The position numbers were made by a program, and so were the translations under genes. The notes beneath the pieces are model-generated. The model had not been told where the DNA came from, made no database searches, and was given only the letters and a program-made list of their open reading frames with translations. Positions 40,714 through 61,425 of a stretch of DNA of 64,000 nucleotides are shown piece after piece. How positions within the stretch are numbered: the stretch's first letter is position 1; the number at the start of each line of letters is the position of its first letter. Origin of the DNA: Vicinamibacteria bacterium (GTDB taxonomy: Bacteria; Acidobacteriota; Vicinamibacteria; Marinacidobacterales; Marinacidobacteraceae); assembly GCA_963555995.3 (NCBI GenBank), contig OY821641.1:311399-375398 (forward strand), read 5' to 3'.

Positions 40714-40774
40714 AACGGGACAATCCTACCACCGGCAGGGGCAGGGCGGCCGGACGGGCCGGATCGCGGAGGGC

Positions 40775-40823
40775 CGGGAGCGCCGGTCTTCAGACCGGCA
40801 CGCGGGCCGCAGGCCCGCAGGCG
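40775..40823 (-). repeat. REP-like module (reverse), H1' gcgggcc/ggcccgc
   Basis: 'ccgggagcgccggtcttcagaccggcacgcgggccgcaggcccgcaggcgg'. Confidence 0.85.
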
Positions 40824-40889
40824 GCTCAGCGCCCCTCCCCTATGATCGCGAGCGTCCACTCGCAACCCACTCGCCAACTGGAGGATGTC

Positions 40890-42101
40890 ATGAAGGTCAC
40901 GCGCCGCGAGTTCATCGGCAACGTTTCCGCCGCCGCCGTCGTCGCCCAGCCGGGCACGGCGGGTCCGGCCGCGACCGCCGACGATCCCCTCGGCGTCCGC
41001 GGCGACTTCCCGGTGGTCGAGGAGGGCGTTTATCTCAACTGCGCCTACATCGCCCCGTCGCCGCTCCCGGTCGTCGAAGCCGTCCGGGAGTTCCTCGACG
41101 CGAAGATCCGCAGTCCCCGGAGCCTGGGAGCGATGGTGGACGAGTCCCACGCCGCGCGGCGGAAGTTCGCCCGGCTCATCGGCGCCGGTGAGCATGAGGT
41201 CGCGTTGCTCTACTCCACCAGCGAGGGCGAGAACATCGTGGCCGGGTCGCTCGACCTCCGCCCCGGCGACAACGTCGTGATTGACGATCTTCACTTCCAA
41301 ACCACCTACGTCCTCTACCAGCATCTGGCCGAGACCAGCGGGATCGAGGTCCGCGTGGTGCCGTCGAGCGGCGGCGCCGCGCCGGTGGACGCGTTCGCCG
41401 AGTTCATGGACGATCGCACCCGGCTCGTCTCCGTGGCGTGGGTCTCCAACCAGAACGGGTACCAGCAGGACCTCGCGGCCCTCGCCAGGCTGGCCCACGA
41501 CCGGGGCGCCTACCTCTACGCCGACGCGGTCCAGGGGATCGGCATGCTCGACCTGGACGTGAAAGAGACCGGCATCGACTTGTTCACCACCGGGACCTAC
41601 AAGTGGCTGCTGGCCGGGCACGGCGTGGCGCCGTTCTATGTCCGGGAAGAACTTCTGGATGTTGTGGCGCCGGACCGCTACGGCCATCTCCACGTGGCCG
41701 AGGACCTGGGCGAATACCAATACCGGCTCTACGAGGACGCCCGGAAGTACGAGTACGCAACCCTGGCCTTCGAAGCGGTCTACATGTTGAGCGCGGCGCT
41801 CGACTATCTGCTCCGCATCGGGGTGAAGAACATCGAGCGGCACACGGTGGGTCTGGCGCACCGCCTTCACGAGGGGCTCACCGCCCAGGGTCAGGACGTC
41901 TGGACGCCGCCCGGCAACCGGTCCGCGATCGTCGCCTTCGAGCACCAACGGGACAACGCGATGGTCCGTCGCTCGCTCATGGAGGCGCGCATCAACGTGA
42001 GTCTCCGCGAGGGCGGGGCCCACGTCCGTGCGTCGCCGGCGCTCTTCAACAACGCCGCCGAGATAGACGCGCTACTGGATGTGACGGGGGGCTGGGCGTA
42101 G
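40890..42101 (+). CDS. class V aminotransferase-fold PLP enzyme with twin-arginine signal
   Basis: RBS ggagga. 'MKVTRREFIGNVSAAAVVA' (Tat motif). 'VSVAWVSNQNGY', 'LYADAVQGIG', 'TGTYKWLL' (PLP-Lys region). Confidence 0.8.
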   Translation: MKVTRREFIGNVSAAAVVAQPGTAGPAATADDPLGVRGDFPVVEEGVYLNCAYIAPSPLPVVEAVREFLDAKIRSPRSLGAMVDESHAARRKFARLIGAGEHEVALLYSTSEGENIVAGSLDLRPGDNVVIDDLHFQTTYVLYQHLAETSGIEVRVVPSSGGAAPVDAFAEFMDDRTRLVSVAWVSNQNGYQQDLAALARLAHDRGAYLYADAVQGIGMLDLDVKETGIDLFTTGTYKWLLAGHGVAPFYVREELLDVVAPDRYGHLHVAEDLGEYQYRLYEDARKYEYATLAFEAVYMLSAALDYLLRIGVKNIERHTVGLAHRLHEGLTAQGQDVWTPPGNRSAIVAFEHQRDNAMVRRSLMEARINVSLREGGAHVRASPALFNNAAEIDALLDVTGGWA

Positions 42102-42883: not shown

Positions 42884-43015
42884 CGGCCGACTCGAACCGG
42901 CCGGACCTCTACCCGCTGCCGCCGGGCCTGTTGTCCGACGAAGAGGTGGCAGCCTTGATGGATGACGCCAAAGGAAACCGGTGAGGATGTAGCTACCTGG
43001 GGCTACAATCGCCGT

Positions 43016-43309
43016 ATGAAAACCGTCGGTATCCGGGTGCTCAAGAACCGGTTGAGCGAGTACGTGCGCATCGTCCAGAACGGGGAACGGGTGACCGTGA
43101 CGAGCCGCGGTGCACCGGTGGTGGACCTCGTTCCGCACGCACCGGACGGGCTTGACCCCGACGACGAACTCCTGCGGCGAGCCCGTGCCGGCAAGGTACG
43201 GCTCGGCCTGCCGAACGTGAAAGCGGTGTACACGCGCCCGCCCGCAAAACGCCGGTTGCCGGATGATGTCGTCGAGGCGCTGCTTGACGAAGTACGGGGC
43301 AACCGGTGA
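43016..43309 (+). CDS. Phd/YefM-like type II antitoxin (VapB position)
   Basis: 'MKTVGIRVLKNRLSEYVRIVQNGERVTVTSRGAPVVDLVP'. Its stop overlaps the PIN gene start. Confidence 0.8.
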   Translation: MKTVGIRVLKNRLSEYVRIVQNGERVTVTSRGAPVVDLVPHAPDGLDPDDELLRRARAGKVRLGLPNVKAVYTRPPAKRRLPDDVVEALLDEVRGNR

Positions 43310-43737
43310 CTCTCTATGCGGAAACGAGCGCGGTCCTCGCGTGGCTCTTCGGAGAAATCCGCGGTCCGGTCGCGCTCGCCGCTCTGAGGAAGAGCGACCG
43401 TGTTTTCGCTTCCGAGCTGACGTTCATCGAAAGCCATCGCGCGATCCACGCTGCCGTCGCGACCGGGAGGCTCGGTCGCGCTCACGGAGACGAGGCCCGG
43501 GAGCAGCTCGAGTCCGAGACGGTTTCCTGGATCGTCCATGACTTCGACGCCGAGATCACTCGCCGAGCGCGACGCGGTTTTCCGCGGGAACCGTTGCGCG
43601 CCCTCGATGCGCTGCACCTGGCCACCGCCATGGAAATCCGGGCGTTTCGCCCGGAGTTGAACCTGTTGTCCTTCGACCGCCGGGTGCGGGAGAACGCCGC
43701 CGCGATGGGGTTCGAGCTGGTGCCGGACGGGATCTGA
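43306..43737 (+). CDS. vapC: PIN-domain toxin (VapC-like)
   Basis: PIN acidic pattern: 'LYAETSAV', 'ASELTFIE', 'LRALDALHLATA', 'LLSFDRR'. GTG start overlapping the antitoxin stop. Confidence 0.8.
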   Translation: MTLYAETSAVLAWLFGEIRGPVALAALRKSDRVFASELTFIESHRAIHAAVATGRLGRAHGDEAREQLESETVSWIVHDFDAEITRRARRGFPREPLRALDALHLATAMEIRAFRPELNLLSFDRRVRENAAAMGFELVPDGI

Positions 43738-43908
43738 TCGACTGGACCACAGAGTTCGGCATCGCGGGCGGCCTGCCGGGACTCGTGCCGATTCCGTGTT
43801 CCAGTGCGATTTGCGTGTCCGGACAAGATGGTGGACACTCCACCGGACAATCTGCGGGACAATACTCAGGACAAACTACGGCCCAACGTTGGCCCGGAGG
43901 GCAGCGCC

Positions 43909-45123
43909 ATGACGACTTCGGGAGAGCGCGAGTACCAGAGGACCCACCCCTGGATCCGCTTCCAGCTCGACCTCCGGAAGGCCGATCCCGGACTCTGGGT
44001 CCTGCTCGGCCAGATCGTCGCCTTTGGCGAGTTCGTGTCCCGGGCGCTGCTGCCTCCGAAGGTGGCTGCGAACCTGGCGCGCCTCTACCTCGCCAAGGGC
44101 GTTCAGGCGACGGTCGCGATCGAGGGCAACACGCTCAGCGAGGAGGAGGTCCTCGCGCAGATTGATGACAGGCTCGAGCTTCCCGCTTCCAGGGAATACC
44201 TGGGCCGGGAAGTCGGGAATGTGGTGGATGCGGCCAACGACATCGTCACGCGCATCCACGGCGGGAACGCCCCGCGGCTCACCGCGGCGTTCGTGGCCGA
44301 CTGCAACGGCCGCATCCTCACCGGGCTTGCCGAAGTGCTCGGGGACGAGGTGGAGCCCGGGCGCATCCGCAAGCACTCCGTCGGCGTAGGCCGCTACCGG
44401 GGGGCGCCCGCCGAGGACTGCGAGTACCTGCTGGACCAACTGGGCGAGTGGTTGGAGGCGATTCCTCAGCTCACGGTCCTCGCCACCGAATCGGACAACC
44501 GCGTCGCAACCGGGGTCCTGCGCGCCGTGCTGGCCCATCTCTACCTTGCCTGGATCCACCCTTTCGGGGATGGCAACGGGAGAACCGCCCGGCTCGTCGA
44601 GCTGTCCCTGCTGGCGCGCGTCCTGCCGTTCCCGTCGACGCAGCTTCTGAGTAACCACTACCACGACACCCGCGCTGCCTACTACCGCGAACTCGACCGC
44701 GCCGGCCAGGCGAACCAGCGGCGCGGCGATGCGATCGGCTTCCTGCGCTACGCCCTCCAGGGACTCTCCGACGGACTCCGGGAGCAGTGCCGGGAGGTGA
44801 CCCGCATTCATCACCGGATCGCTTGGCGTGACTTCGTGTATCGCCGGTTCGACGAGGAAGAGACGTCCTCGGCGGTGCTTCGCCGCCGGCAGCTTCTCCT
44901 CGAGTTGCCGCCCCCCTCGACCCCGGTGTCCAGGGAGCGGATCCCGATCCACAGTCTGAAGCTCGCTCATTCCTATTCCGGCCTGAATCCCAAGACGCTG
45001 GATCGGGATCTGAACTGGTTGATCGAGAAGGGGCTCGTGGTCCGCTCCCCGGACGGCTATGCCGCCAACCGCGGTCTCATGCAGGCGTTCGTGATGCCGG
45101 GTGCACCGGAGGGCGGTACGTAA
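43909..45123 (+). CDS. Fic family protein (class II, intramolecular inhibitory motif)
   Basis: Fic motif 'HPFGDGNGRTAR' and the upstream inhibitory motif 'TVAIEGN' ([ST]xxxE[GN]). The start could also be 43804. Confidence 0.85.
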   Translation: MTTSGEREYQRTHPWIRFQLDLRKADPGLWVLLGQIVAFGEFVSRALLPPKVAANLARLYLAKGVQATVAIEGNTLSEEEVLAQIDDRLELPASREYLGREVGNVVDAANDIVTRIHGGNAPRLTAAFVADCNGRILTGLAEVLGDEVEPGRIRKHSVGVGRYRGAPAEDCEYLLDQLGEWLEAIPQLTVLATESDNRVATGVLRAVLAHLYLAWIHPFGDGNGRTARLVELSLLARVLPFPSTQLLSNHYHDTRAAYYRELDRAGQANQRRGDAIGFLRYALQGLSDGLREQCREVTRIHHRIAWRDFVYRRFDEEETSSAVLRRRQLLLELPPPSTPVSRERIPIHSLKLAHSYSGLNPKTLDRDLNWLIEKGLVVRSPDGYAANRGLMQAFVMPGAPEGGT

Positions 45124-45185
45124 CCGGCATTCCCCGGGACCTTCTTCCACCAGCCCGCTACCGGACCAGGAACGCCCCGCGCTCT

Positions 45186-45395
45186 CACAGGTTCCGCCGC
45201 CGCCGTATCTCGTCCTGACCAGGACCTCCGCAGGTAGGACGACAGCACCGGATCAACCAGCGTCCAGCGCCCGTCGTCGTTCCGGTCCAACATATGTTGG
45301 AACAAGGATCATTGGTCCAACAGATATGGAAGCCACGTCTTCCTCGGGGCGGTGCGCCCGGGGCACGGGGGCGCCATGCCTGCCGGTTGCCCGTC
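45186..45395 (-). pseudogene. internally deleted remnant of the orf110-end/ATPase_2 locus found intact at 56.5-57.8 kb
   Basis: 45223..45286 aligns with 56528..56591 (ATPase 3' end; encodes '[21 protein letters not shown]' versus '[21 protein letters not shown]'). 45287..about 45395 aligns with 57682..about 57790 (ATPase start and upstream region). About 1.09 kb of coding sequence is missing. Confidence 0.8.
45287..45300. promoter_or_regulatory. perfect 14-bp palindrome 'ccaacatatgttgg' (imperfect counterpart 'ccaatacatattgg' at 57682..57695)
   Basis: Read directly. Conserved in both copies of the ATPase upstream region, and followed by 'ttggaacaaggatcattgg(t/tt)c(c)aa'. Confidence 0.35.
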
Positions 45396-45537
45396 CTCGA
45401 TCCGCGGGAAGTCGCCGGGCAGCACGTCCTCGAGCCGGTTGGTCCGCTGCCAGACCGGGAACGCCCCGTGCGCCCTCAGGTCCCGCCGCCGCGACCGCGA
45501 TCGCGCATGGGTGACAATTGCCCGCGGAACCGAGGCA

Positions 45538-47169
45538 ATGTCACCCGCACGACCGAAGAAGGCGAAGCGCGCGGCCAGGACTGCCGGCGGGAGCGCCACC
45601 ACCGGCTACGAGGCCGAACTCTGGGCGATGGCCGACGCGCTGCGCGGCAGCATGGACGCGGCCGAATACAAGCACGTCGTCCTCGGGCTCATCTTCCTGA
45701 AGTACATCTCGGACGCCTTCGAGGAGACGTACGCCCGCCTGGAGGCCGAGAGGGACGAGGGCGCGGACCCGGAAGACCCGGACGAGTACCGCGCTGACAA
45801 CGTCTTCTGGGTGCCCCCGGAGGCCCGCTGGAACCGCCTCCAGGCGCAGGCGAAGCAGGCCACGGTCGGCCGGCTCGTGGACGACGCGATGGCGGGTATC
45901 GAGCGCGACAACCCGGCCCTCAGGGAGGTGCTGCCCAAGGAGTACGCGCGCCCGGCGCTCGACAAGCAGCGGCTCGGCCAGCTCATGGATCTGGTCAGCA
46001 ACATCCGGGTCGGAGACAGGGAAGCCCGCTCCCGGGATGTCCTCGGCCGGGTGTACGAGTACTTCCTCTCCGAGTTCGCGAACGCCGAGGGCAAGAAGGG
46101 CGGCGAGTTCTACACGCCGCGCTGCGTCGTCCGGCTGCTCGTCGAGATGATCGAGCCGTACCAGGGCCGGGTGTACGACCCGTGCTGCGGCTCCTCCGGG
46201 ATGTTCGTCCAGTCCGTCGAGTTCATCGAGGCGCACGCGAGCGGCAACGGGAACGCCCGGACCACGCCCTCGGGGGCCAAGGCGGACATCTCGATCTACG
46301 GTCAGGAGTCCAACTACACGACCTGGCGGCTCGCCCGGATGAACCTGGCCATCCGCGGCATTGGTGGCCAGATCGCCCAGGGCGACACCTTCCACAACGA
46401 CCGGCATCCCGACCTGCGAGCCGACTTCATCCTGGCGAACCCGCCGTTCAACGTGTCCGACTGGGGAGGCGACCGCCTCACCGAGGACCCGCGGTGGGAA
46501 TACGGCGTGCCGCCGAAGGGCAACGCGAACTTCGCGTGGGTGCAGCACATCGTCCACCACCTGGCGCCGACAGGTGTCGCCGGGTTCGTCCTCGCCAACG
46601 GGTCCATGTCCTCGCAGCAGTCCGGGGAAGGGGAGATCCGCAAGAACCTGATCGAAGCGGGTCTCGTGGACTGCATGGTCGCCCTGCCGGGGCAGCTCTT
46701 CTACTCGACCCAGATCCCGGCGTGCCTCTGGTTCCTGTCCCGGCGGCGGTTCGGCGGCGGCCTGCGCGACCGGCGCGGCGAGGTGTTGTTCGTGGACGCC
46801 CGGCGGCTCGGCCGCATGGTGACCCGCCGCCACCGCGAACTGACGGACGCGGAGATCACCCGGATCGCGGACACCTACCACGCCTGGCGCGGCGAGGAAG
46901 GAACGGGCGACTACGAGGACGTCCCGGGCTTCTGCCGGAGCGCCCCGCTCGACGAGGTGCGGAAGCACGGGTACGTGCTGACGCCTGGACGGTACGTGGG
47001 CGCGGAGCCGGAAGAGGACGACGGGGAACCGTTCGAGGCGAAGATGAAGCGGCTCGCCGCGGAGTGGCGGGAACAGCAGGCCGAGGCGGCGCGGCTCGAC
47101 GCGGAGATCGCGGCCAATCTCGCAGCGCTGGGTTTCGGGGACGGTGGTGGCGGCAATTCAGCGACTTGA
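45538..47169 (+). CDS. hsdM: Type I restriction-modification system methyltransferase subunit HsdM
   Basis: HsdM N-terminal block '[32 protein letters not shown]', AdoMet motif '[12 protein letters not shown]', catalytic 'ILANPPFN'. Confidence 0.92.
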
Positions 47170-47430
47170 GATCACAATCCGTGATGTCAAGTCGGGACGG
47201 GCGCCCGTCTCTCCCGCTCCCATTGCTGAACCGGGTGTCTTGATGTTCTCCGGAGTGCTGCGCAGTCCGCGCGCTGTTACGGTTCAGAAGATGCGGAAGG
47301 CGACCCGATTCCACCTCGACAGCTCTGCGGGATTCGGGGAGCTGGTTTCGGGAACGGTCGTCCAGTGTGGGGCTGGTGGTGGCCGCCCCGGCATACAGAC
47401 GCGCCCGATCCCACCGGGGAGTCGCCCGCG

Positions 47431-48729
47431 ATGACGTTCGACGCGGCAGACGTTCGGGAACGAATCCGCCTCGGCGAGGACGCGCGCTGGGAGCTCAAGG
47501 AGGTGGTGTTTCGAGGGAACCGCCTCGTCGGTCCCCGGCCTGACGCGCTTGCGGATGAGTTGGCCGCCTTCGCCAACGGTCGTGGCGGCATTTTGCTCCT
47601 CGGCGTGACCGAGGGTGGCGAGGTCCAGGGAGTCACCCGTACCCAACTCGATGAGCTTGACCGTAACGTCGTGGACCTCTGCCACAACCGGATCACGCCC
47701 CCTATCGAGGTCGATATCCGCCGTTTCCTCATCGAACCCGGGAAACCGGTCCTCTCCGTCGAGGTCGAACCGGGCTACGCCCAGCACGACAGCCCCGGCG
47801 GCGCGTACCAGCGCTTCGGCGGCAGCAAACGGCGGATGTCGCCGGATGAACGGCGTCGGCTCGCCGAGATCCGAAATCAGGCCCCCTTTCGGTGGTTCGA
47901 CAAGCAACCGGTGCCAGGCACCGGACTCGGCAGTCTCGACGACGCGCTTTGGGAACCGATGCTGGACGCTCAGGGACGGCTCGATCCCAGAAGAGGCCTT
48001 GCGAGACTGGCTCTCCTGGCGTCCGAAGCCGAGGCGGCGGCTGAAGCGACCGTCGCCGGCGTTTTGCTGTGCAGCCGCGCGCCGGAGCGATGGCTGCCAA
48101 ACGCCTGCATCACGGCGACTCACTATCGGGGCAAGGACCGCAGTTCCCCGCAGTTGGACGCGCGGGTCATCACGGGGCCGCTCCACCGGCAGGTCGCCGA
48201 CGCCATGACCTTCGTCGAGCGGAACATGCAGGTCGATGCCCACAAGACGTCAGCCCGGATGGATCAGCCCGAATACAGCCTCGAAGCGGTGTTCGAGGCG
48301 CTGGTGAACGCCGTGGCGCACCGCGACTACACGATCCGGGAAAGCCCAATCCGGCTTTCGATGTTCTCGGATCGGTTGGAGATTGCTACTCCGGGTCGGC
48401 TGCCGGGCAGTCTGACCGCCGATACGATGGGCAGCCGTCAGGCAACACGGAATGAAGCCATCGTTTCCATATTGACCGACATCGCGCTGGATGGAGTTTC
48501 CCGCTCGGGCAGCCCAGGTTTCTTGATGACGCGGCGCGGCGTCGGTATTGCCACTATCGCCCATAGAACCCGACGGCTCACGGGCCGGTCGCCCGTATAT
48601 GACGTGTCGGACGATGCCGTTACCCTCACGATTCCGGCGTCTCACCGCACAATGCCGAAGCTCTTCGCGAGAGCTTCCCGGCAAGGACGGGCCGCCGGCG
48701 GAACCGCCGATGCGAGGTTGGCAGGATGA
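47431..48729 (+). CDS. AlbA_2 (Schlafen-like) plus HATPase_c_4 domain protein ('RecG-like' putative DNA-binding/ATPase regulator)
   Basis: N-terminus 'GEDARWELKEVVF...ELAAFANGRGGILLLGV' (AlbA_2). C-terminus 'EALVNAVAHRDY...IRLSMFSDRLEIATPGRLPG' (HATPase_c_4). Its stop overlaps the next start (ATGA). Confidence 0.8.
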   Translation: MTFDAADVRERIRLGEDARWELKEVVFRGNRLVGPRPDALADELAAFANGRGGILLLGVTEGGEVQGVTRTQLDELDRNVVDLCHNRITPPIEVDIRRFLIEPGKPVLSVEVEPGYAQHDSPGGAYQRFGGSKRRMSPDERRRLAEIRNQAPFRWFDKQPVPGTGLGSLDDALWEPMLDAQGRLDPRRGLARLALLASEAEAAAEATVAGVLLCSRAPERWLPNACITATHYRGKDRSSPQLDARVITGPLHRQVADAMTFVERNMQVDAHKTSARMDQPEYSLEAVFEALVNAVAHRDYTIRESPIRLSMFSDRLEIATPGRLPGSLTADTMGSRQATRNEAIVSILTDIALDGVSRSGSPGFLMTRRGVGIATIAHRTRRLTGRSPVYDVSDDAVTLTIPASHRTMPKLFARASRQGRAAGGTADARLAG

Positions 48730-49211
48730 TCGCCGAAAAGGAACCGAGAATTGACTACTCCAGGTTCCAACTCTCCCTCAGACGGCTGGTGGAACAACAT
48801 GACAACCTCTTGGCCGCCGACGATGCGCTTTCGCGGCTGGACCGCGAGGCGCGTACCGAATCGGTGATTCGGCGTTTCAAGATGTGCTACGACTGCCTGT
48901 GGAAGGTCTTGAAGCGCTACCTCATCCAGAATCTCGGACTGGCTGATCCGCCAAATAGTCCTGTCCCGCTCTTCCGTCTGGCCGCGGAGAACGGTGTGTT
49001 CGATTCACCCGTTGAGCAGTGGATGCGGTACGTGGCCGCGCGAGTTGACACTGCCCACCACCACGACGGGGAGAAGGCGAAGCGCTGCCTCGATACCGTG
49101 CCCGAGTTTCTGGACGACGCCATCCATCTCTATGGGACGATAACGGGTGAACCATGGGGCAGCAATCCTGCCGCGCCGTTTGCCGCCGGTAGTGCACCAT
49201 GCTGGACCTGA
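48726..49211 (+). CDS. HEPN domain protein, HI0074 (nucleotidyltransferase substrate-binding) family, paralogue 1
   Basis: 'VIRRFKMCYDCLWKVLKRYL' and an R-x4-H motif 'RVDTAHHHD'. No Tyr two residues after the His. Confidence 0.8.
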   Translation: MIAEKEPRIDYSRFQLSLRRLVEQHDNLLAADDALSRLDREARTESVIRRFKMCYDCLWKVLKRYLIQNLGLADPPNSPVPLFRLAAENGVFDSPVEQWMRYVAARVDTAHHHDGEKAKRCLDTVPEFLDDAIHLYGTITGEPWGSNPAAPFAAGSAPCWT

Positions 49212-49621
49212 CTCCGCTCGACAACGCCATAGCCCAACTCGAAGAGGCGCTCGATTTCCACGGGTCTGACCTTGCTGCCGAGCAGCCGCGACTCCGGCTC
49301 CAGTTGCGCGCGGCCGCGATTCAGGCGTTCGAATTCACGTACGAGCTCTCCTTCAAGATGCTTGGCCGGTATCTGGAGCAAGTTATGCCGAATCCAGCGG
49401 CAGTGGACAAGATGCCGTTCAAGGACCTGATCCGGGAAGCGCTGGGTCGCGGGCTGCTCGCCGCGGACGTAGATGCGTGGGAGCGGTTCCGGAAGTTTCG
49501 GGGAACGACCAGCCACACCTACGACGCCGGAAAGGCACAGGCCATCTTCGAAGGCATTCCGGAGTTTCTGGACGAAGTCCGGTATCTCCGGAAGCGGCTC
49601 CGCACCAACGTGGAAGGGTGA
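49199..49621 (+). CDS. HEPN domain protein, HI0074 family, paralogue 2
   Basis: 'AIQAFEFTYELSFKMLGRYL' and the canonical 'RGTTSHTYD' (R-x4-H-x-Y). It overlaps paralogue 1 by 13 nt. Confidence 0.85.
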   Translation: MLDLTPLDNAIAQLEEALDFHGSDLAAEQPRLRLQLRAAAIQAFEFTYELSFKMLGRYLEQVMPNPAAVDKMPFKDLIREALGRGLLAADVDAWERFRKFRGTTSHTYDAGKAQAIFEGIPEFLDEVRYLRKRLRTNVEG

Positions 49622-51255
49622 TGGCGCCCGCGATTGATCTTCGTCCGGATCACCGGAAGATCGTCGAGGACATCCTGCGCGACCACCTCCCGGATGGCGC
49701 CAAGGTCTGGGTCTTCGGAAGTCGCGCCGAGTGGACCACCAAGGATTCTTCCGACCTGGACCTCGCGCTCGAAGGTGACGGGCCGCTCGATCGCCGGATC
49801 GTGATGGCGCTCGAACTGGCTTTCGAGGAGTCGTTCCTCCCGTTCCGGGTGGACGTGGTGGATCTGGAGCGGGTGCAGGAGCGGTTTAGAGAGATCGTGC
49901 TCCGAAGCCGCGTTGGCCTGTCTTTGCCGAGGGATGGTGAGGCAACGTATACGAATCGAGGCGAGATGGGGTTCTCAGATGCCTTCCTAGTGAATCCAAG
50001 AGTCAAGCTGGAACGAGATGTGGAGTATCCGTTCGTCGAAATGAGTGATCTGATGCCGGGTCTGCGTGCGGCTGTGTCAACGCGGCGTCGTCGGTTTCGC
50101 GGTGGCGGTTCTCGCTTCAGAGCCGGTGACACTTTGATGGCGCGAATAACGCCATGTCTCGAAAACGGCAAGATTGCCCGTTACGTGGCAACACGGAAAG
50201 ACGACGTAGGACATGGTTCGACCGAATTCATTGTCATTCGAGGCCGCCCCGATGTAACGGATACCGAGTTTGCCTTCTATGTGACGCGTTCAGATTCAGT
50301 CCGGGAATACGCGATCTCTCAGATGAGTGGCACATCGGGCCGGCAGCGCGTCCCAGTGGACGCGTTGAACACTCTGATGGTTTCTGTACCAAGCCTTCCT
50401 GAGCAGCGCGCAATCGCGAGCGTTCTCGGGACGCTCGATGACCGCATCGAGCTGAACCGGCGGATGAACGAGATATTGGACGCGATGGCGCGGGCGCTCT
50501 TCAAGTCCTGGTTCGTGGACTTCGATCCTGTACGGTCAAAAATGGAAGGCCGCGACGCGGGTCTGCCGTCCGAGATCGCCGACTTGTTCCCGGACCGGCT
50601 GGTGGAGTCGGAGTTGGGCGAGATTCCCGAGGGATGGGCCGTCATGCCGCTTGCAGAGGTCATGGAAATCAACCCCGTCCGCACACTCAGTAGGGGTCAC
50701 ATCGCGCCCTACCTCGATATGGCAAACATGCCGAGAACGGGTCATGTTCCTCTCAGTATCCGAATGCGGAACTTCGGCTCGGGGACCCGATTTGTGAACG
50801 GCGACACGCTCATGGCGCGGATTACGCCATGCCTTGAGCATGGGAAGACAGCCTATGTGGATTTCCTCCAACACGGTGAAGTCGGATGGGGTTCGACTGA
50901 GTTCATTGTGCTGCGACCGAGGCTGCCAATCCCCGGCGAATATGCCTACTGTCTTGCGAGAAGTTCTCGTCTTCGCGAACACGCGATCGCGAGCATGACG
51001 GGGAGCAGTGGGCGACAGCGAGTTCCGCCGGCCGCGCTTTCCCAGTTCCTGGTGTGTGTGGCAACTCCGGGGATCTATCGCGCGTTTGGCGATTCGGTGA
51101 GCGCGTTGTTCGCCCGTGTGCGAGAAGGGCAGCGTCGTTCGCGTGCCGCGACTTCCCTCCGCGACATGCTCCTGCCCAAGCTCGTGTCCGGCGAAGTCCG
51201 CGTGCCCTCTACTCTGGTCGGGCGCTACAACGACCCCGCAGCGCCTGCGACCTGA
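49621..51255 (+). CDS. hsdS: fusion protein: minimal nucleotidyltransferase (MNT) domain plus Type I specificity subunit HsdS
   Basis: Residues 1-100 carry pol-beta NTase motifs 'VFGSRAEWTTKDSSDLDLAL' and 'FRVDVVDL'. The rest is a two-TRD HsdS ('GDTLMARITPCLENGK', central 'LPEQRAIASVLGTLDDRIELNRRMNEILDAMARALFKSWFVDF', 'GDTLMARITPCLEHGK', 'LRDMLLPKLVSGEV'). There is no stop between the domains. The ATG overlaps the HEPN2 stop (TGATG). Confidence 0.8.
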   Translation: MAPAIDLRPDHRKIVEDILRDHLPDGAKVWVFGSRAEWTTKDSSDLDLALEGDGPLDRRIVMALELAFEESFLPFRVDVVDLERVQERFREIVLRSRVGLSLPRDGEATYTNRGEMGFSDAFLVNPRVKLERDVEYPFVEMSDLMPGLRAAVSTRRRRFRGGGSRFRAGDTLMARITPCLENGKIARYVATRKDDVGHGSTEFIVIRGRPDVTDTEFAFYVTRSDSVREYAISQMSGTSGRQRVPVDALNTLMVSVPSLPEQRAIASVLGTLDDRIELNRRMNEILDAMARALFKSWFVDFDPVRSKMEGRDAGLPSEIADLFPDRLVESELGEIPEGWAVMPLAEVMEINPVRTLSRGHIAPYLDMANMPRTGHVPLSIRMRNFGSGTRFVNGDTLMARITPCLEHGKTAYVDFLQHGEVGWGSTEFIVLRPRLPIPGEYAYCLARSSRLREHAIASMTGSSGRQRVPPAALSQFLVCVATPGIYRAFGDSVSALFARVREGQRRSRAATSLRDMLLPKLVSGEVRVPSTLVGRYNDPAAPAT

Positions 51256-51455
51256 TGTTCGTCGGGCGTGATCCAGGGCGGGAAGCAACACGTGCAGAAT
51301 TTGCACAAGTTCGATTTCGGCACGGGAGGCCCGGATCTCTCCGGGTGCATCCTGGGGGCTGGTTGTCCGACGGGACCTCCGAAGACGGATTGAGACATCT
51401 GTGCGGCTTGTCCCAGAGCACGGCCCAAAAGGTGGGGGCAACTAGTAAGGATTCC

Positions 51456-52978
51456 TTAACAGCCTGTGGTGAAACTCCGCTGGGCGGGATTGAGTGCGCT
51501 GGCGGGGCTTCGTAGAATTTTCGCATGGCTATGGGACGTCGCGGGACGCGGCGGCAAGGGTTGTGGATTGCGACCGGGGCGCTGCCTCGGAGCAAGGGGG
51601 ATCCGTTTTACGAGCGTCTGAATAAGGTTCTCGGGGGGGATCGCTTTGACGAGTATGTGGAGGAGCGGTGTGAGCGTCACTACGCGCCGGACGGTCGTCC
51701 TGGGCTTGCGCCTGGGCGGTATTTCCGCTGCCTTCTGATCGGGTATTTCGAGGGTCTGGACTCGGAGCGATTGATCGCGTGGCGGGTGAACGACTCCCGC
51801 AGCCTGTTGCGGTTCCTGGGTTACGGGCCGGCGGACAGCGGGCCGGATCATTCGACGATTTCGCGGACGCGCCGTCGGGTGAGTGAGGAGACGCACGCGG
51901 AGGTGTTCGGCTGGGTTGTGGAGCGGGTGAAGCGAGCGGGGCTTCTGCGGGGGGATGCGCTGGGGGTGGATACGACGACGCTGATGGCGAACGCCTCGAT
52001 GCGGAAGATCGTGCGACGGGACAGCGGGGAGGGCTACCGGGAGTATGTGAGGAGGTTGATGGAGGAGTCGGGGATCGAGGCTCCGACGTTGGAGGAGTTG
52101 GCGCGCTACGACCGGACGCGGAAGAAGCGGTTGTCGAACGGCGACTGGGCGCATCCGGTGGACCCCGAGGCCCGCATCAGTCGGCTGAAGGATGGCCGGA
52201 CGCGGATGGGGTACAAGGCGGAGCACGCCGTGGACCTGGCGAGTGGCGCGATCGCGGCGGTGACGGTCCAACCCGGGGACCGCGGGGACACCAAGACCCT
52301 GCCGCAGACCCTGGACGAAGCGGAGAAGCATGTGGGGGCCGGGGCGGCGGAGGCTGAAACGCCGGGGAAGCCAACGGCTTGCCGGAAGGAGGGGAAGCCC
52401 CGGTCCTTGGTGTGTGACAAGGGGTATCACAGCGATGCGGTGATCGAGCAGACGCGGGAGCGTGGTTACCGTTCGTACATCGCGGAGCCGAAGCGCGGGC
52501 GTCGTCGCTGGCGGGGTCGAGAGTCCCTGCGTCGCGCGACATACGGCAACCGTCGGCGGGTTCGTGGAAATCGCGGCACCCGGCTGCGAAGACGGCGCCA
52601 CGAACTGACGGAGCGTTCCTTCGCGCACTGCTACGAGACCGGCGGGATGCGCCGGGTGTGGTTGCGGGGCAGTGGGAACATTCGAAAACGTCTGCTGATC
52701 CACACCGCTGGCTTCAATCTGTCGCTGCTCATGCGGCGCCTGACCGGGATCGGGAAACCAAAGGGCCTCCAGAACCGGAACATGGAGGCCATGCAGCGCC
52801 ACTTGTCGCCCGGACGGGCCTCCCTGTGGCGCATCGTGCACCTCTGGCGCCGTTGTCCGACCGCGATCCTCGTTCTCTTGACCGAACCCCCGTCCTGGCC
52901 GTGTCTCCACGAGCAGAAGCTCGACGCTCATTCCCGACGGAATCCGCCGTGAACGCCACTTTCACCACAGGCTGTTAA
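51456..52978 (+). mobile_element. IS5-superfamily (IS1182-like) insertion sequence, 1,523 bp
   Basis: Perfect 19-bp terminal inverted repeats: 'ttaacagcctgtggtgaaa' (51456..51474) and 'tttcaccacaggctgttaa' (52960..52978). The outermost TTAA could instead be a target duplication. One transposase ORF. Confidence 0.85.
51525..52952 (+). CDS. IS5/IS1182-family DDE transposase
   Basis: InsH-type N-terminal domain ('FRCLLIGYFEGLDSERLIAWRVNDSRSLLRFLGY..HSTISRTRRR'). DDE region ('LGVDTTTLMANAS', 'CDKGYHS', 'ERSFAH...RGSGNIRKRLLIHTAGFNL'). Confidence 0.85.
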   Translation: MAMGRRGTRRQGLWIATGALPRSKGDPFYERLNKVLGGDRFDEYVEERCERHYAPDGRPGLAPGRYFRCLLIGYFEGLDSERLIAWRVNDSRSLLRFLGYGPADSGPDHSTISRTRRRVSEETHAEVFGWVVERVKRAGLLRGDALGVDTTTLMANASMRKIVRRDSGEGYREYVRRLMEESGIEAPTLEELARYDRTRKKRLSNGDWAHPVDPEARISRLKDGRTRMGYKAEHAVDLASGAIAAVTVQPGDRGDTKTLPQTLDEAEKHVGAGAAEAETPGKPTACRKEGKPRSLVCDKGYHSDAVIEQTRERGYRSYIAEPKRGRRRWRGRESLRRATYGNRRRVRGNRGTRLRRRRHELTERSFAHCYETGGMRRVWLRGSGNIRKRLLIHTAGFNLSLLMRRLTGIGKPKGLQNRNMEAMQRHLSPGRASLWRIVHLWRRCPTAILVLLTEPPSWPCLHEQKLDAHSRRNPP

Positions 52979-53012
52979 TGGTTCGATCCGAAGGGCGCCG
53001 GACGGTTCGCCC

Positions 53013-56141
<3,129 letters not shown>

Positions 56142-56194
56142 GCGGTTACCAGGCGCAGCTCCCGGGTTCCCCGGTTGCTCTGTAGGAGGTCTTC

Positions 56195-56527
56195 ATGACT
56201 CATAAACCCGATGCCCTTGAACGAGATTTCGACGCCGCGATGATGCAGATCTACTACCGTGCGAAGGACGAGGTGGGATACAACGCGAACCGGTTTCTGC
56301 AAATGCTGCACGACTACGGCGGCGTTGAAACCGCCAGGCGCCTGCTACCGGCCATGTCCGACGGATTCACTGCACTCTACGAACACTGTCGTCTCGACCT
56401 GACCGTCGAGTACCTCGTGCTGCAACCCCGATGGCATCAACTCTTCACGGATGAAGAGCGAGACACGGCGCGTCGCCGTCTCAAGTGCTGCGGGATGGAG
56501 GTTCCGGCCGTATCTCGTTCGGACTAA
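56195..56527 (+). CDS. hypothetical protein (110 aa) downstream of hsdR
   Basis: Protein-like composition ('RFLQMLHDYGGVETARRLL', 'LTVEYLVLQPRWHQLFTDEE'), 53 nt after hsdR. No family recognised. Confidence 0.6.
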   Translation: MTHKPDALERDFDAAMMQIYYRAKDEVGYNANRFLQMLHDYGGVETARRLLPAMSDGFTALYEHCRLDLTVEYLVLQPRWHQLFTDEERDTARRRLKCCGMEVPAVSRSD

Positions 56528-57690
56528 GACCTCCGGAGGTAGGACGCCATCACCGGATCAACCAGCGTCCAGCGGCCGTCGTCATTCCGGTGGATCAGGT
56601 CGTCCTGTTCGAGTACCGCACGGGCGTGATTCCCGGTGGATGCGGGCAGCCTGAGAGTGGACAGGAACCGGTGGGAGCCCGGGTGTTCCACTCCGTCCTC
56701 GGACTGGGCGATGGCCTTGAGCATGGCGCGTTGGCTGGCCGGACGACGGAGCAGGCGGCCGGCGGCGACGCGTCCATCTTCGTCCACGATTCGGGACCAA
56801 TGCGCTTCCACGGATTCGATGCCGGGCGAGCGCTGACCGCCCCAGAGCCGGGCGCAGAGCGCATTCACATAGTAGGGATGCCGTGCCGTGAGCCTGAGGA
56901 CTCGAGCGATCACGTCGTCGGCCACCGGCTGGCCCCAGCGTGTCCGGCTCGCTTCCTGGATGAAGGCCCGGTAGTCAGCCTCCCCGATGCGGTCGAGGGT
57001 GATCTTGCGGCACAGGCGGTACAACGGCCGCTCCTCATCCTCGAACATCCCGGCCAGCAGGCGCCGCTGGCTCCCGGAGAAGAGATAGGTGACATTCCCT
57101 GACCGTTCGACCGCGTGCCGGATGGCGCCTTCGAGGCTGCGCTGCGCGGTCTTGGGGGAAAGCTGCGACAACTGCTGAAACTCGTCGAGCACCAGGACCA
57201 CCCGGCGCCCGACCATCCCGGCGGCCCGGTCGAGGCCGAGCAGCATTTCGGTGATTCCCCGTGTCGGAGGACCCGGCGGCGTGAGGCGGATCTTCAGACC
57301 CATCGCACCGACGGAGAATTCCGGAGAGAGCGCGCGGAACGCGTCGGTGAGCGTTTGACTCGCTTTTCTGCCCTTTGGTGCGATCCGGGCGCTCACGCCT
57401 TCAACTGCCGTTCGCAACCGTCCTTCGAGGTCTTGGCCGTCGTGGGCGACCAGCAGGTCAACGGCGGTGGCGGCGATCTCCGTTCCAGCGAGGTCCTGCA
57501 GCACCTGTTCGATGAGGCTGGTCTTGCCCGTCCGGCGGTGGCCCCAGAGCCAGGTGTGCGTCCCGGAAGCGATGTTGTGGCTGAGTTCGGCGCGCTCCTC
57601 CGTGCGGTTGCAGTGGGCGGCTCCCGTCGCGATTCCGAGCGGGAAGAGGTCCGTTCCGGCTGCCATGTGAGGGATTTTATTCCAATACAT
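56524..57690 (-). CDS. ATPase_2 (archaeal-ATPase/ORC-like) family P-loop NTPase with C-terminal wHTH-like region
   Basis: Walker A 'GHRRTGKTSL', Walker B 'VVLVLDEFQ', C-terminus '[24 protein letters not shown]'. The start may instead be the Met at 57666. Confidence 0.8.
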   Translation of the reverse strand: MYWNKIPHMAAGTDLFPLGIATGAAHCNRTEERAELSHNIASGTHTWLWGHRRTGKTSLIEQVLQDLAGTEIAATAVDLLVAHDGQDLEGRLRTAVEGVSARIAPKGRKASQTLTDAFRALSPEFSVGAMGLKIRLTPPGPPTRGITEMLLGLDRAAGMVGRRVVLVLDEFQQLSQLSPKTAQRSLEGAIRHAVERSGNVTYLFSGSQRRLLAGMFEDEERPLYRLCRKITLDRIGEADYRAFIQEASRTRWGQPVADDVIARVLRLTARHPYYVNALCARLWGGQRSPGIESVEAHWSRIVDEDGRVAAGRLLRRPASQRAMLKAIAQSEDGVEHPGSHRFLSTLRLPASTGNHARAVLEQDDLIHRNDDGRWTLVDPVMASYLRRS

Positions 57691-57807
57691 ATTGGAACAA
57701 GGATCATTGGTTCAACGGATATGGAAGCCGTCCTTCTCGCGACGGTGCGTTGCAGGGCACGGGTTCGCCATCCGTGCCGGTTTGGTGGGGCGCCTCGCGC
57801 CTTCGGC

Positions 57808-57835
57808 GGTGCCGGTCTGGAGACCGGCGGTCCCT
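57808..57835 (+). repeat. REP-like H2 module (forward)
   Basis: 'ggtgccggtctggagaccggcggtccc'. Confidence 0.8.
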
Positions 57836-57855
57836 TCCGATCCGGAACGTCATGC

Positions 57856-59025
57856 TCAGATGACGTTCCGCTCCGGAGCGCCCTTCCCGCCGGTGAACCG
57901 CGCCACGGAGAACGCCTCGATCTCCACCGTCCTGGACTCCCCGTCGGCGATCACCTCGGAGATCGCCCGGCCGACCGCCGGGGCGTGCTGCATTCCGTGG
58001 CCCGAGAACCCGTTCGCCAGCACGAATCGGGGCAGTTCCGGGACCGGACCCAGGATCGCGTTGTGATCCGGGGAAACCTCGTAGAGGCCCGCGTTCAGCG
58101 TCTTCATCACCGTGTCCTCAACTCGCGGTAGCCGTCGGGTCGCGTCCTCCCACACCCCGGCCAGATAGTCGAGATCCGCGGTCTGCGAGAACCCCGGCGG
58201 CTCGTCGGGGTCCGAGTTCCCGATCAGCATCCCGCCGCTGTGGAGGTGCATGTATACCCCCGTACCCCAATCAATGGTCAGCGGCATCCGCTTCGGCCCC
58301 CACGCCAGCGGCTCCGTCGTGAAGAACTGCCTCCGCACGGGCGAGACCGGCACGTCCACCCCGAGCAGCGCGCCCACCTGAGCGGCCCACGGCCCCGCCG
58401 CGTTCACGAGCCACGCGCACTCCCACCGCTCGCCGCCCGCCACGAACGAGAACCCGCCCCCGTCCGCTACCGCCGCCTCCGTCACCTCGCACCCGCGCCG
58501 CAACTCCACACCCCCCCGCCGCGCGAGCGCCGCGTACCCCGCCACCAGCGCCGCCGGGGTCGCCACCCCGTCCTCCGCGCAGAACGTCGCCCCCACCAGG
58601 TCCCGGATCTCGATCCCCGGCAGGATGCGCCGCGCCTCCTCCGGCGTGATGACCTCCACCGGCGCGCCCAGCGCCCGCTGCACCTTCGCCGTCTCGGTGA
58701 ACCGCGCCAGGTCCGCTTCGGAGTCCAGCAGGAACAGGTACCCGTCCTGGGTGAAGTCGGCGTCCACCCCGGTCCGCTCCTTGAAGTTCCGGATCTCCTC
58801 GATGGAATACCGCGAGAGCGCCACGTTCGCAGCGGTCGTGAACTGCAACCGCACCCCGCCGGCGGCCTTGGCGGTCGAACCCGTCCCCAGGGCGTCCTCG
58901 CGCTCGAAGACCACCACCCGGCCTACCTTCCGCTCCGCGAGATGGGCGGCGATGGAGGCGCCGATCACCCCGCCGCCGACGATGGCGACCTCGGCGAAGC
59001 GTTCCCCCGGCATCACGCCCCGCAC
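57856..59025 (-). CDS. FAD-dependent oxidoreductase (DAO family; sarcosine oxidase beta/glycine oxidase-like)
   Basis: Dinucleotide fold 'VAIVGGGVIGASIAAHLA', 'GTGSTAKAAGGVR', C-terminal 'GFSGHGMQHAPAVG'. Confidence 0.85.
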   Translation of the reverse strand: MRGVMPGERFAEVAIVGGGVIGASIAAHLAERKVGRVVVFEREDALGTGSTAKAAGGVRLQFTTAANVALSRYSIEEIRNFKERTGVDADFTQDGYLFLLDSEADLARFTETAKVQRALGAPVEVITPEEARRILPGIEIRDLVGATFCAEDGVATPAALVAGYAALARRGGVELRRGCEVTEAAVADGGGFSFVAGGERWECAWLVNAAGPWAAQVGALLGVDVPVSPVRRQFFTTEPLAWGPKRMPLTIDWGTGVYMHLHSGGMLIGNSDPDEPPGFSQTADLDYLAGVWEDATRRLPRVEDTVMKTLNAGLYEVSPDHNAILGPVPELPRFVLANGFSGHGMQHAPAVGRAISEVIADGESRTVEIEAFSVARFTGGKGAPERNVI

Positions 59026-59097: not shown

Positions 59098-60402
<1,305 letters not shown>

Positions 60403-60432
60403 CGGGCTTCGGCCCGGGGACAGACCGTCAAG

Positions 60433-60633
60433 ATGAAGGAAATAGTGGCGGTCATTCTGAATGGGATGTCCCGGATTCCGTTGTCGCCGACGATCTTTGC
60501 GGATGAGGTCAGGAGGTCCGATCGAGACGCCTTCCGAAAGGACCTGGAGAAGCTCGGTCGCGATTTCCGGGTAGCTATGGGGCACGAAGAGGACCGACAG
60601 CCAAAGGGTCGCGTCGTCCGGAACCCTCAGTAA
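60433..60633 (+). CDS. hypothetical small protein (66 aa)
   Basis: ATG-initiated ORF in a visibly lower-GC segment right after gltA. No family recognised. Confidence 0.4.
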   Translation: MKEIVAVILNGMSRIPLSPTIFADEVRRSDRDAFRKDLEKLGRDFRVAMGHEEDRQPKGRVVRNPQ

Positions 60634-60744
60634 GCCACCGAACCCGACCACAGCCGATACGGAGAGCGGCCGGTGCCGGCGGGCGGAAGGCCGGCGGTGG
60701 AGCCACACGGGCGAGCAGCGTTGCGCCCTCCGCTCGCCTCCGGC

Positions 60745-60786
60745 GCGCTGTGCCGACCGGAGGTCGGCGCTCCAAGCCGGCGCGCC
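60745..60786 (+). repeat. REP-like module (forward), H2 variant gccgacc-gga-ggtcggc
   Basis: 'gcgcgctgtgccgaccggaggtcggcgctccaagccggcgcg'. Confidence 0.8.
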
Positions 60787-60868
60787 GTGAAGGAGAACGG
60801 CCCGCTGGAGACGGGGACGTGACTTGCGCGAATCTGTTCGTACCCCACAATCGTTGGCGGTCGGCCCG

Positions 60869-60890
60869 AACACAACGATAACATTGTGTT
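60869..60890. promoter_or_regulatory. dyad 'aacacaa-N8-ttgtgtt' overlapping the start of the HTH gene
   Basis: Read directly. A candidate autoregulatory operator. Confidence 0.35.
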
Positions 60891-61335
60891 AGTGATTACC
60901 AACGAGAGGCAGTACAGGATTACGCGCAAGAGGGCGGTTGGCTTCGCCCGCGTGATCGAGCAGTTCGACACGGGGTCGGACGAGTGCACGGACTTGCATC
61001 CGCGGCTGCTGCGGGCCGAACTGGAAGGCATGAAGAGTCAATTGGCGGAGTTGCGCCAGGAACTTGAGGAGTACGAACAGTTGAAGTCGGCGGATCTGTC
61101 GGTGATTTCGGTGGCGTCGTTCGATGAACTTGCGGGCGGCCTGATCAAGGCCAGGATTGCGGCGGGTCTGAGCCAACGCGGGCTTGCAGAACGGCTGAAT
61201 CTCAAGGAGCAGCAGATTCAGCGGTACGAAGCCGAGGGCTATGCGTCCGCCAGCTTTCGGCGACTGTGTGAGATCGCGCAGGCCTTGGGGATTCGGGTCG
61301 AAAACGAGATGCTCCTTCGCGTTGCGCCGGTGTGA
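60886..61335 (+). CDS. HigA-like XRE-family HTH antitoxin/regulator
   Basis: N-terminus 'ITNERQYRITRKRAVGFARVIEQF' (HigA-type helix), a coiled-coil linker, and the HTH 'GLSQRGLAERLNLKEQQIQRYE'. Confidence 0.75.
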   Translation: MLVITNERQYRITRKRAVGFARVIEQFDTGSDECTDLHPRLLRAELEGMKSQLAELRQELEEYEQLKSADLSVISVASFDELAGGLIKARIAAGLSQRGLAERLNLKEQQIQRYEAEGYASASFRRLCEIAQALGIRVENEMLLRVAPV

Positions 61336-61367
61336 AGGCCCTTACCGGGAGGACTGGCCGGCGCTTC

Positions 61368-61425
61368 CGCGCGCCCGAAGCCGTTGTATCTGGCCTACTG
61401 GGAGCGGCCGGTTCCGGCGGGGTGA
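61368..61425 (+). repeat. 58-bp diverged duplicate of the gltA 3' end (last 18 codons plus stop)
   Basis: 'cgcgcgcccgaagccgttgtatctggcctactgggagcggccggttccggcggggtga' against 60345..60402 'cgcgcggccgaagcagttgtatctggggtacgacgagcggccggtcccggcggggtag'. The frame and the stop position are preserved (ARPKPLYLAYWERPVPAG* versus ARPKQLYLGYDERPVPAG*). Confidence 0.85.

Follow-up and report, generated by a model that had tools for sequence, protein, structure and literature searches.

How did a type I restriction-modification (R-M) island come to lie between a degraded and an intact copy of one ATPase gene module? The question is posed by a 64,000-nt stretch of DNA, here called the window, from a Vicinamibacteria bacterium (assembly GCA_963555995.3, contig OY821641.1, positions 311,399 to 375,398; G000:C1:311399-375398 in our labelling), whose 3.8-Mb genome has 70% G+C (70.2%) and whose nearest named relatives are Acidobacteria metagenome-assembled genomes (MAGs). 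The repeat on the left of the island is an internally deleted copy of the ATPase module on its right. A first-pass annotation had recognized the repeats and proposed that the hsd cassette was gained or exchanged by recombination between ATPase copies; our comparisons bear out the repeats and lead to a partly different history.

We compared ~20 related genomes and metagenome contigs at the interval between an aminotransferase and an FAD-dependent oxidoreductase in which the island resides. Loci were anchored on the oxidoreductase, the neighbouring DNA was fetched, layouts were established by tblastn with the window proteins, and gene content was assigned by Pfam, PADLOC, and NCBIfam. G000 denotes the genome carrying the window, G001-G015 are further labels for genomes of the genus (16 in the genus), and L labels denote extracted loci or contigs. 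R1 is a same-species relative, a 145-kb metagenome contig that carries the nearest homologue of the ATPase (96% identity).

The left repeat is an internally deleted ATPase module

The intact module (56507-57782, minus strand) comprises a 21-nt 3' flank, the ATPase coding sequence, and an operator region; its product matches Pfam AAA_14, AAA_16, and ATPase_2 weakly. On the other side of the island, two minus-strand blocks repeat its ends. Block 1 (45202-45286) contains the 21-nt flank and the last 22 codons and aligns with 56507-56591 at 76 of 85 positions (89%). Block 2 (45287-45388; aligned as 45286-45388 against 57681-57782) is 82-90% identical, reaching 90% in 45286-45334 against 57681-57729 and 86% in its distal part, 45361-45388 against 57755-57782 (repeat finder and MAFFT for both blocks). 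BLAST of 45140-45500 against the whole 3.8-Mb genome returns two partner sites only (E = 6.6e-26 and 9.3e-21), and tblastn with the ATPase protein finds one intact gene and the left fragment only. Moreover, the same two blocks match the ATPase modules of six other genomes. Alignment and genome BLAST thus agree with the first-pass annotation on both blocks, which are neither chance, low-complexity, nor dispersed matches, while their borders shift: the weak similarity seen toward the end of orf110 holds for 45202-45222 and falls to chance level left of 45202/56507 (p = 0.08-0.28), and the upstream block ends at 45388/57782, not at 45395/57790.

The part gone from the left copy corresponds to 56592-57680 and measures 1,089 bp, in line with the ~1.09 kb estimated initially. 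What remains spans 187 bp, as surviving repeats of 85 nt and 102 nt out of ~1.28 kb originally, and in translation it still encodes the last 22 ATPase codons, with the stop mutated to TGG. Both ends of the module are kept in correct order and orientation; therefore, a complete second copy once existed.

Block 2 had been taken for the start-codon region of the ATPase. The coding sequence extends from 56524 to 57666, or to 57690 as the longest open reading frame. The closest homologues are all 380 aa long and start with MAAGTD, and G012 has no start codon farther upstream, so that the true start is probably 57666. The deletion would therefore have taken the start codon too, and block 2 would represent the 5' untranslated and operator region from about -15. 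For the same reason, we no longer interpret the relic as coding in frame for an "MLD-..." fusion peptide.

The longest perfect runs between the repeats are 20-24 nt, within 82-90% identity. When polarized by G012, the relic shows 2-3 private changes and the intact copy 15-16, which supports a reading of the two copies as diverged alleles. None of the closest homologues of the ATPase is an intact allele that matches the relic. As a clock, the 10% divergence of the two copies was rejected, since the right copy lies in a demonstrably recombining tract.

Upstream of the ATPase, CCAA-N6-TTGG dyads form a tandem array that repeats every 15 nt (57681-57730 and 45287-45335 in the window; L016 17508-17560; L034 4209-4295). 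Three dyads are found in G012, L044, L046, and L047 and four in a G006 relic without ATPase, while in the window the relic has two and the intact copy one. In G012, the array sits between the ATPase and a divergent HATPase_c_4 gene. It looks like a putative operator for a dimeric DNA-binding protein.

The ATPase itself has 237 homologues, none characterized, among them 60%-identical ones in Gammaproteobacteria MAGs. A PDB sequence search gave no match, PADLOC and NCBIfam assigned no firm family to either the ATPase or orf110 (with a weak mad8 match for the ATPase), and a scan of metagenome contigs yielded distant ATPase matches only. The gene occurs in 5 of 16 genus genomes, at two unrelated loci, of which the other conserves the coding sequence but not the module ends.

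Its earlier history can be read next to the oxidoreductase. In G012, R1, L044, L046, L047, and L048, the ATPase stop adjoins a diverged duplicate of the final ~95 oxidoreductase codons; such 3' relics lie beside the module in all six other oxidoreductase-adjoining loci and are about 70-80% identical (L016 ~16100-16342; L045 19048-19340; also L044, L046, L047, and L048). The module therefore appears to have first entered the oxidoreductase 3' end, with a ~290-nt duplication. The genome studied here keeps a ~21-nt residue of this relic, which flanks both the ATPase relic and the intact copy but not the intact copy of R1. Between the module and the oxidoreductase stop lies a repetitive extragenic palindromic (REP) element (57783-57855, core 57811-57828), which is also present in R1.

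Age of the island and exchange at its locus

The interval is bounded by a class-V aminotransferase on the left (40842-42101, plus strand; PF00266) and the FAD-dependent oxidoreductase of the DAO family on the right (57856-59025, minus strand; PF01266), followed by citrate synthase (59098-60402, plus strand). Oxidoreductase orthologues are present in 13 of the 16 genus genomes, and among the ~20 relatives at least nine layouts occur between the flanks, as expected from the earlier proposal of a defence hotspot with variable cassettes and at odds with one arrangement common to all. One of the layouts holds toxin-antitoxin genes alone. The interval is empty in G003 (0.7-kb gap) and about 2 kb long in G011. 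G015 carries Phd, a gene fragment, and a full YgjP gene; G014 carries Phd/PIN and Fic; G012 has other genes, Phd/PIN, Fic, a YgjP relic, an oxidoreductase 3' relic, the ATPase, and the HATPase_c_4 gene. L046 reads Fic, oxidoreductase relic, ATPase, oxidoreductase, and L044 has the same series preceded by cassette B. Thus, Fic followed by the ATPase and the oxidoreductase without R-M, an order envisaged by the first-pass annotation, exists in G012, L044, and L046. In G009, a YgjP relic is followed by the same R-M island and by orf110, 12 nt from the oxidoreductase, without ATPase. G008 holds hsdS and hsdR relics beside Fic; G010, G004, and G006 hold cassette B, whose type I R-M is 32-35% identical to that of the island; L049-L051 hold YgjP, a ThiF/sigma/SMC cassette, and an orf110 homologue before the oxidoreductase; G013 and G001 have other content. 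Judged by these predicted defence genes (type I R-M A and B, SoFic, HEPN/MNT, PIN/Phd, and AlbA_2/HATPase_c_4), the interval is a chromosomal defence hotspot with cassette exchange among related Acidobacteria through recombination at conserved sequences.

Comparison with G009 argues against a recent gain. The stretch homologous to the G009 island has its exact limits at 45499 and 56511, and the DNA identities of hsdM (88.4%) and hsdR-orf110 (84.9%) resemble those of the flanking aminotransferase (85.1%) and oxidoreductase (84.2%). The island is as diverged as the housekeeping flanks and has thus been at this locus since these species split. From ccmH through the oxidoreductase, R1 shares the gene order, with both of the YgjP relics described below and with the ATPase relic, which differs at 3 positions. 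Therefore, the duplication and the 1,089-bp deletion predate the split between G000 and R1, and the earlier estimate that the duplication is not recent stands.

The same comparison reveals a mosaic. Between 45538 and 54504, leaving aside an insertion sequence (IS), the two genomes show 9 differences (~99.9% identity). To the left, 43141-45537 is 1.5-9% diverged; to the right, identity falls to 93% in 54505-56142 and 87-98% in the ATPase and oxidoreductase (87-95% overall from 54505 to about 58900), returning to 97-98% in gltA. At the site of orf110, R1 instead has a 483-aa AAA_16-like gene and a ~290-nt oxidoreductase 3' relic. Such a mosaic directly evidences homologous exchange, whose breakpoints lie at the start of hsdM, within hsdR, and in the oxidoreductase. 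None of the visible breakpoints falls in the ATPase copies, where the first-pass annotation had placed the exchange; recombination between them is a possible acquisition route. With G009 as outgroup, the comparison of G000 and R1 gives 43 against 50 private sites in the diverged segment from mid-hsdR to the oxidoreductase, counts that mark neither as its recipient, and a sliding-window comparison of the oxidoreductase in 12 genus genomes gives no clear mosaic. Amid an otherwise 98-100% identity to R1, two further patches were observed, one of about 9% divergence at the PIN/Fic junction (43546-43885) and one of about 22% in a REP-rich spacer (40486-40985). Both look like small recombination imports or REP turnover.

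The island itself encodes a predicted intact type I R-M system, as hsdM, hsdS, and hsdR are all open frames with full domain sets. All its genes lie on the plus strand. The methyltransferase gene hsdM (45538-47169; HsdM_N, N6_Mtase; start inferred from the 543-aa call in R1) is followed by an SLFN_AlbA_2/HATPase_c_4 gene (47365-48729), two HEPN (NTase_sub_bind) genes (48726-49621), and the specificity subunit (49621-51255; PADLOC Specificity_I, NCBIfam MntA, and Pfam; 544-aa call in R1). The latter joins an MNT nucleotidyltransferase domain, in frame, to a complete HsdS with two target recognition domains. The G009 island is without the HEPN-HEPN-MNT block, and its HsdS is 43% identical. The hsdR gene (53013-56141; Pfam) contains the R1 breakpoint at about 54505. 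Between hsdS and hsdR lies an IS of the IS1182/IS5 family (51457-52978, plus strand; NCBIfam), which is absent in R1, has duplicated its TTAA target, and has two other copies in the genome, at least 99.8% identical and 2.3-3.4 Mb away. It is evidently a recent insertion, later than the island, and may uncouple hsdR from the hsdMS promoter, which would make expression of the R subunit uncertain.

The right end of the island is formed by orf110 (56195-56527, plus strand), a conserved ~103-aa gene that adjoins the oxidoreductase in L049-L051 and G009. Its homologues of ~103 aa cover 94% of the 110-aa query but not the last residues, and homology to G009 stops at 56511, that is, at the 21-nt 3' flank of the module. 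The last ~6 codons of orf110 therefore derive from the ATPase-module flank.

In composition, the island departs mildly from the genome, as defence islands usually do: its GC content is 65.6% compared with 70.2% for the genome (6th percentile of 3-kb windows), with 60-61% in the HEPN/MNT/hsdS genes and 58% in orf110. The absence of REP elements, noted initially, is real between 42138 and 57811 (15.7 kb), but 70 of 532 inter-REP gaps are at least as long; the gap has little meaning, and we rejected REP depletion as an argument for foreign origin.

Left of the relics, the interval contains a PhdYefM antitoxin/PIN toxin pair (42962-43737, plus strand; PF02604, PF01850), a variable part found in only some relatives, and a SoFic-like Fic gene (43804-45123, plus strand; PF02661; PADLOC SoFic, E = 1.8e-43). 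G008 (L031 5804-7216) retains, between PIN and Fic, no more than a piece of the hsdR N terminus (aa 3-105, 61% identical) and one of the hsdS C terminus; in that lineage, the same R-M island thus once stood left of Fic. The slot in L049-L051 (2189-7838) holds six uncharacterized genes between YgjP and the orf110 homologue, encoding an 86-aa and a 115-aa protein, a ThiF/E1-like, a sigma70_r4-like, and a 300-aa protein, and an SMC_N/AAA_23 ATPase, which together make up a candidate defence system. L048 (6949-8421) encodes a 490-aa large serine recombinase (Resolvase and HTH) beside its YgjP relic/ATPase locus, the sole recombinase seen near any version of the hotspot.

A second hotspot lies just downstream of citrate synthase (window 60345-61425; L043 3489-7119; L049-L051 11.5-16 kb). 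In the window, it holds a 1-kb islet flanked by a duplicated 58-nt gltA 3' end (48 of 58 positions identical). R1 carries a Hachiman-like pair (HamA and DEAD helicase) at this site, and three other contigs carry DUF6932/HTH, CBS/TerB, and an Mrr_cat gene.

Origin of the duplicated borders

The ATPase relic is itself enclosed by a second bracket, a 49-nt direct repeat (45155-45203 and 45444-45492, 84% identical). Both arms belong to remnants of a YgjP-like metallopeptidase gene. D4a (45151-45205, minus strand) consists of its last ~17 codons and stop and aligns with the 3' ends of the full genes in G015 and G010, and D4b (45429-45510, minus strand), 84% identical to D4a, abuts the upstream region of hsdM. 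The sequence of both, D4, comes from a minus-strand gene, of which it forms the stop-proximal end (...HELVHL...PDYERRRRDLRERGAFLVW*); the full-length form of this gene in G015 matches the YgjP-like family PF01863 (E = 5e-57). In relatives, D4 is single-copy in the hotspots of G015, G010, G006, G004, G009, G001, G012, and L044; it is retained at the slot's left edge in G015, G010, G006, G004, G009, G012, and L044, and the full gene is present in L049-L051. In G010, G004, G006, and L044, the YgjP-like gene closes cassette B, a different type I R-M operon. By these alignments, a YgjP-like 3' end forms the slot's conserved left anchor, a feature that the first-pass annotation had missed. D4b is 84-88% identical to its counterparts in G010, G015, and G006, and homology to the G009 island begins within it, at 45499.

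We lean toward an origin in which two allelic versions of the slot came to stand head to tail at the oxidoreductase end of the hotspot, and give it somewhat better than an even chance. Version 1 would be Fic, D4a, and the ATPase module, as in G012, L044, and L046, and version 2 would be D4b, the type I R-M operon, and orf110, as in G009. A version-2 piece of ~11.1 kb (45389-56506) would have joined the resident ATPase module on its right, without replacing it, leaving a 1.28-kb module copy on each side of the insert. This could have happened either by an insertion that duplicated a long target or by a homologous join on the oxidoreductase/ATPase side combined with an illegitimate join at 45388/45389. 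The redundant left copy then decayed, as the loss of 1,089 bp and of the stop codon shows, and by the evidence of the R1 relic all this is older than the split from R1. Ordinary homologous recombination has gone on thereafter: the segment from mid-hsdR to the oxidoreductase was replaced in one lineage, with orf110 swapped against the 483-aa AAA gene, and the IS landed between hsdS and hsdR in the genome studied here.

Several observations weigh against this scheme. The ~40 nt between the ATPase relic and D4b (45389-45428), presumed junction or donor flank, match nothing in the genome or in any relative's locus, so that the illegitimate join is deduced only. No intermediate was found among the relatives, neither two intact ATPases nor R-M, orf110, and ATPase without the relic. 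The divergence of 10-16% between the module copies misfits a simple target duplication and needs later overwriting of the right copy. Moreover, the two copies send mixed signals: the 3' flank joins the relic with its own intact copy, while operator-region indels common to the intact copies of G000 and R1, and missing from the relic, split them. These signals would fit a right-hand copy partly overwritten by recombination. Finally, all polarized comparisons use less than 200 nt, and R1 and L044-L051 are metagenome contigs in which assembly errors are possible.

The repeats could also be read as the trace of a tandem duplication in situ, in which a ~12.4-kb unit of YgjP relic, R-M, orf110, and ATPase was doubled, the first copy then lost its R-M island in one large deletion and the ATPase interior in another, and the copies diverged in place. 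The units from D4a to the left module copy (M1) and from D4b to the right one (M2) do share their element order, the relic and the intact copy are mutually the closest known alleles at several sites and in the 21-nt flank, and D4a and D4b, each with 4 private changes, stand equally far from the consensus of the genus. This course of events, however, demands coincident borders, since the large deletion must end exactly where orf110-G009 homology ends (56507-56511) and the duplicated unit must begin exactly at the YgjP stop. The sequences to the left of D4a and of D4b are unrelated. The relic's 2-3 private changes against 15-16 in the functional copy are the reverse of neutral decay, a perfect 12-kb tandem repeat would be unstable, and the version-1 and version-2 layouts are each found separately in relatives. 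We therefore consider a tandem duplication unlikely.

The sharp, identical module ends in both copies would also be explained if the ATPase module were a small mobile unit, inserted twice independently, once after the YgjP relic by Fic and once after orf110, with subsequent shrinkage of the left copy. Its patchy distribution (5 of 16 genus genomes, two unrelated loci, homologues in Gammaproteobacteria) is compatible with such a unit, and a copy that has lost its interior but kept both termini looks like a miniature inverted-repeat transposable element. Yet the module has no transposase, recombinase, terminal inverted repeats, or target-site duplication, the genome has two copies only, the 3' flank resembles a trimmed oxidoreductase relic and not an element end, and at the other genus locus the coding sequence alone is conserved. 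Two independent insertions thus seem highly improbable to us.

Still harder to sustain is site-specific integration, with the island as a present or former integrative element and the repeats as attL and attR from entry at the ATPase 3' end. Direct repeats that include the 3' end of a gene do lie on either side of the island, gltA and the oxidoreductase show the same pattern, and the L048 recombinase lies near the ATPase locus there. Against this, Pfam and gene content reveal no integrase or recombinase in 42.9-57.8 kb or in the R1 island, the left copy also holds sequence from upstream of the gene, something that an att duplication does not yield, and the repeats have no long identical core; we give this origin hardly any credence. 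Coincidental or low-complexity similarity in a GC-rich genome, as the chance-level stretch left of 45202 might have suggested, is refuted by the two E-values, the conserved peptide, and the matches to the modules of six other genomes.

As they stand, the repeats could give rise to a rare, RecA-dependent loss of the island by deletion of 11,305 bp or 12,395 bp. The putative operator of the relic lies about 150 nt upstream of hsdM. That the relic is not inert, and that its operator was retained because it places the R-M operon under the regulator of the ATPase gene, is a rather doubtful idea; a sigma-70 promoter scan of 45000-45700 found nothing, and a promoter role of the relic has so far no support. 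If true, one of the HATPase_c_4/AlbA_2 DNA-binding proteins found with these modules could be that regulator, hotspot cassettes would be wired into one circuit, and a shared operator would explain the relic's fewer private substitutions and its two dyads compared with one.

Relation to known defence loci

R-M gene complexes inserted with long target duplication were reportedly described by Nobusato and coworkers in 2000. In the survey of Furuta, Abe & Kobayashi 2010 (PMC2853133), the repeats are 46-420 bp long with copies 93-100% identical, and type I examples include extra regulator and ATP-binding genes. The locus described here shares most features of that class: R and M genes lie between the repeats (hsdM, MNT-HsdS, and hsdR), the insert of 11.1 kb is below 20 kb and has no mobility gene of its own, the IS having come later, the direct repeats exceed 30 bp and are unique in the genome, and a single repeat without insert exists in G012, L044, and L046, which are other species or lineages, not the same species. 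In contrast, the copies are only 82-90% identical, not near-identical, and have unequal numbers of private changes. Membership in this class would hence be by architecture, not by proven origin, and would need later recombination or great age. Further, the duplicated target is a whole gene module of about 1.28 kb, one copy of which is gutted, and the insert brings its own left-anchor relic, D4b, so it would be a piece of an allelic locus, not a free R-M unit.

Core defence hotspots such as cDHS1/2 of P. aeruginosa, for which transfer by homologous recombination in the flanks has been proposed (PMC10250203), and the E. coli hotspots with conserved flanks (PMC10121019) provide another frame. As in these, core flanks are fixed, defence content varies from empty to >15 kb, GC is below the genome average, and no consistent mobile-element signature is present; flank recombination as proposed for cDHS1/2 is seen here in the R1 mosaic. 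Unlike these hotspots, the locus belongs to the phylum Acidobacteria, with metagenome-derived relatives, and retains a readable series of relics (YgjP, oxidoreductase 3' ends, and ATPase) that show adding as well as replacing events.

V. cholerae type VI secretion system (T6SS) immunity arrays and Rhs orphan arrays grow by homology-facilitated illegitimate recombination, and the displaced modules decay (PMC5361080, PMC3240628). Our preferred scheme resembles this, with an incoming module anchored by homology on one side, an illegitimate join on the other, and the old module decaying alongside; it differs in that the modules are defence cassettes and an ATPase gene instead of effector/immunity pairs, and that the anchor side and the joint are deduced only. 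To our knowledge, natural transformation is not known for the host organism. At the E. coli immigration control region, one site carries alternative type I R-M families or none, which are exchanged through flank homology in clean replacement. Allelic hsd replacement there is cited in PMC2853133. Unlike that region, the present locus has two alleles in tandem with duplicated borders. Other frames fit less: an integrase-mediated island is at variance with the lack of a recombinase here and in R1 and of a long identical repeat core, and a composite transposon or IS-mobilized R-M unit with the single internal IS, no IS pair or long inverted repeats bracketing the island.

The locus is a clear example of a known process and presents no new mechanism and no new defence system. 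Its value lies in a layered record of how a chromosomal defence hotspot is built without mobile-element machinery, with three nested cases of an insert flanked by duplicated neighbouring sequence, in which the YgjP 3' end and the orf110/oxidoreductase pair would act as recombination anchors. How core hotspots gain their cassettes is an open question (PMC10250203); here, addition with duplicated borders is seen alongside clean replacement, and the same-species mosaic catches homologous exchange under way. The locus extends such observations to Acidobacteria, in which the dynamics of defence islands are hardly described.

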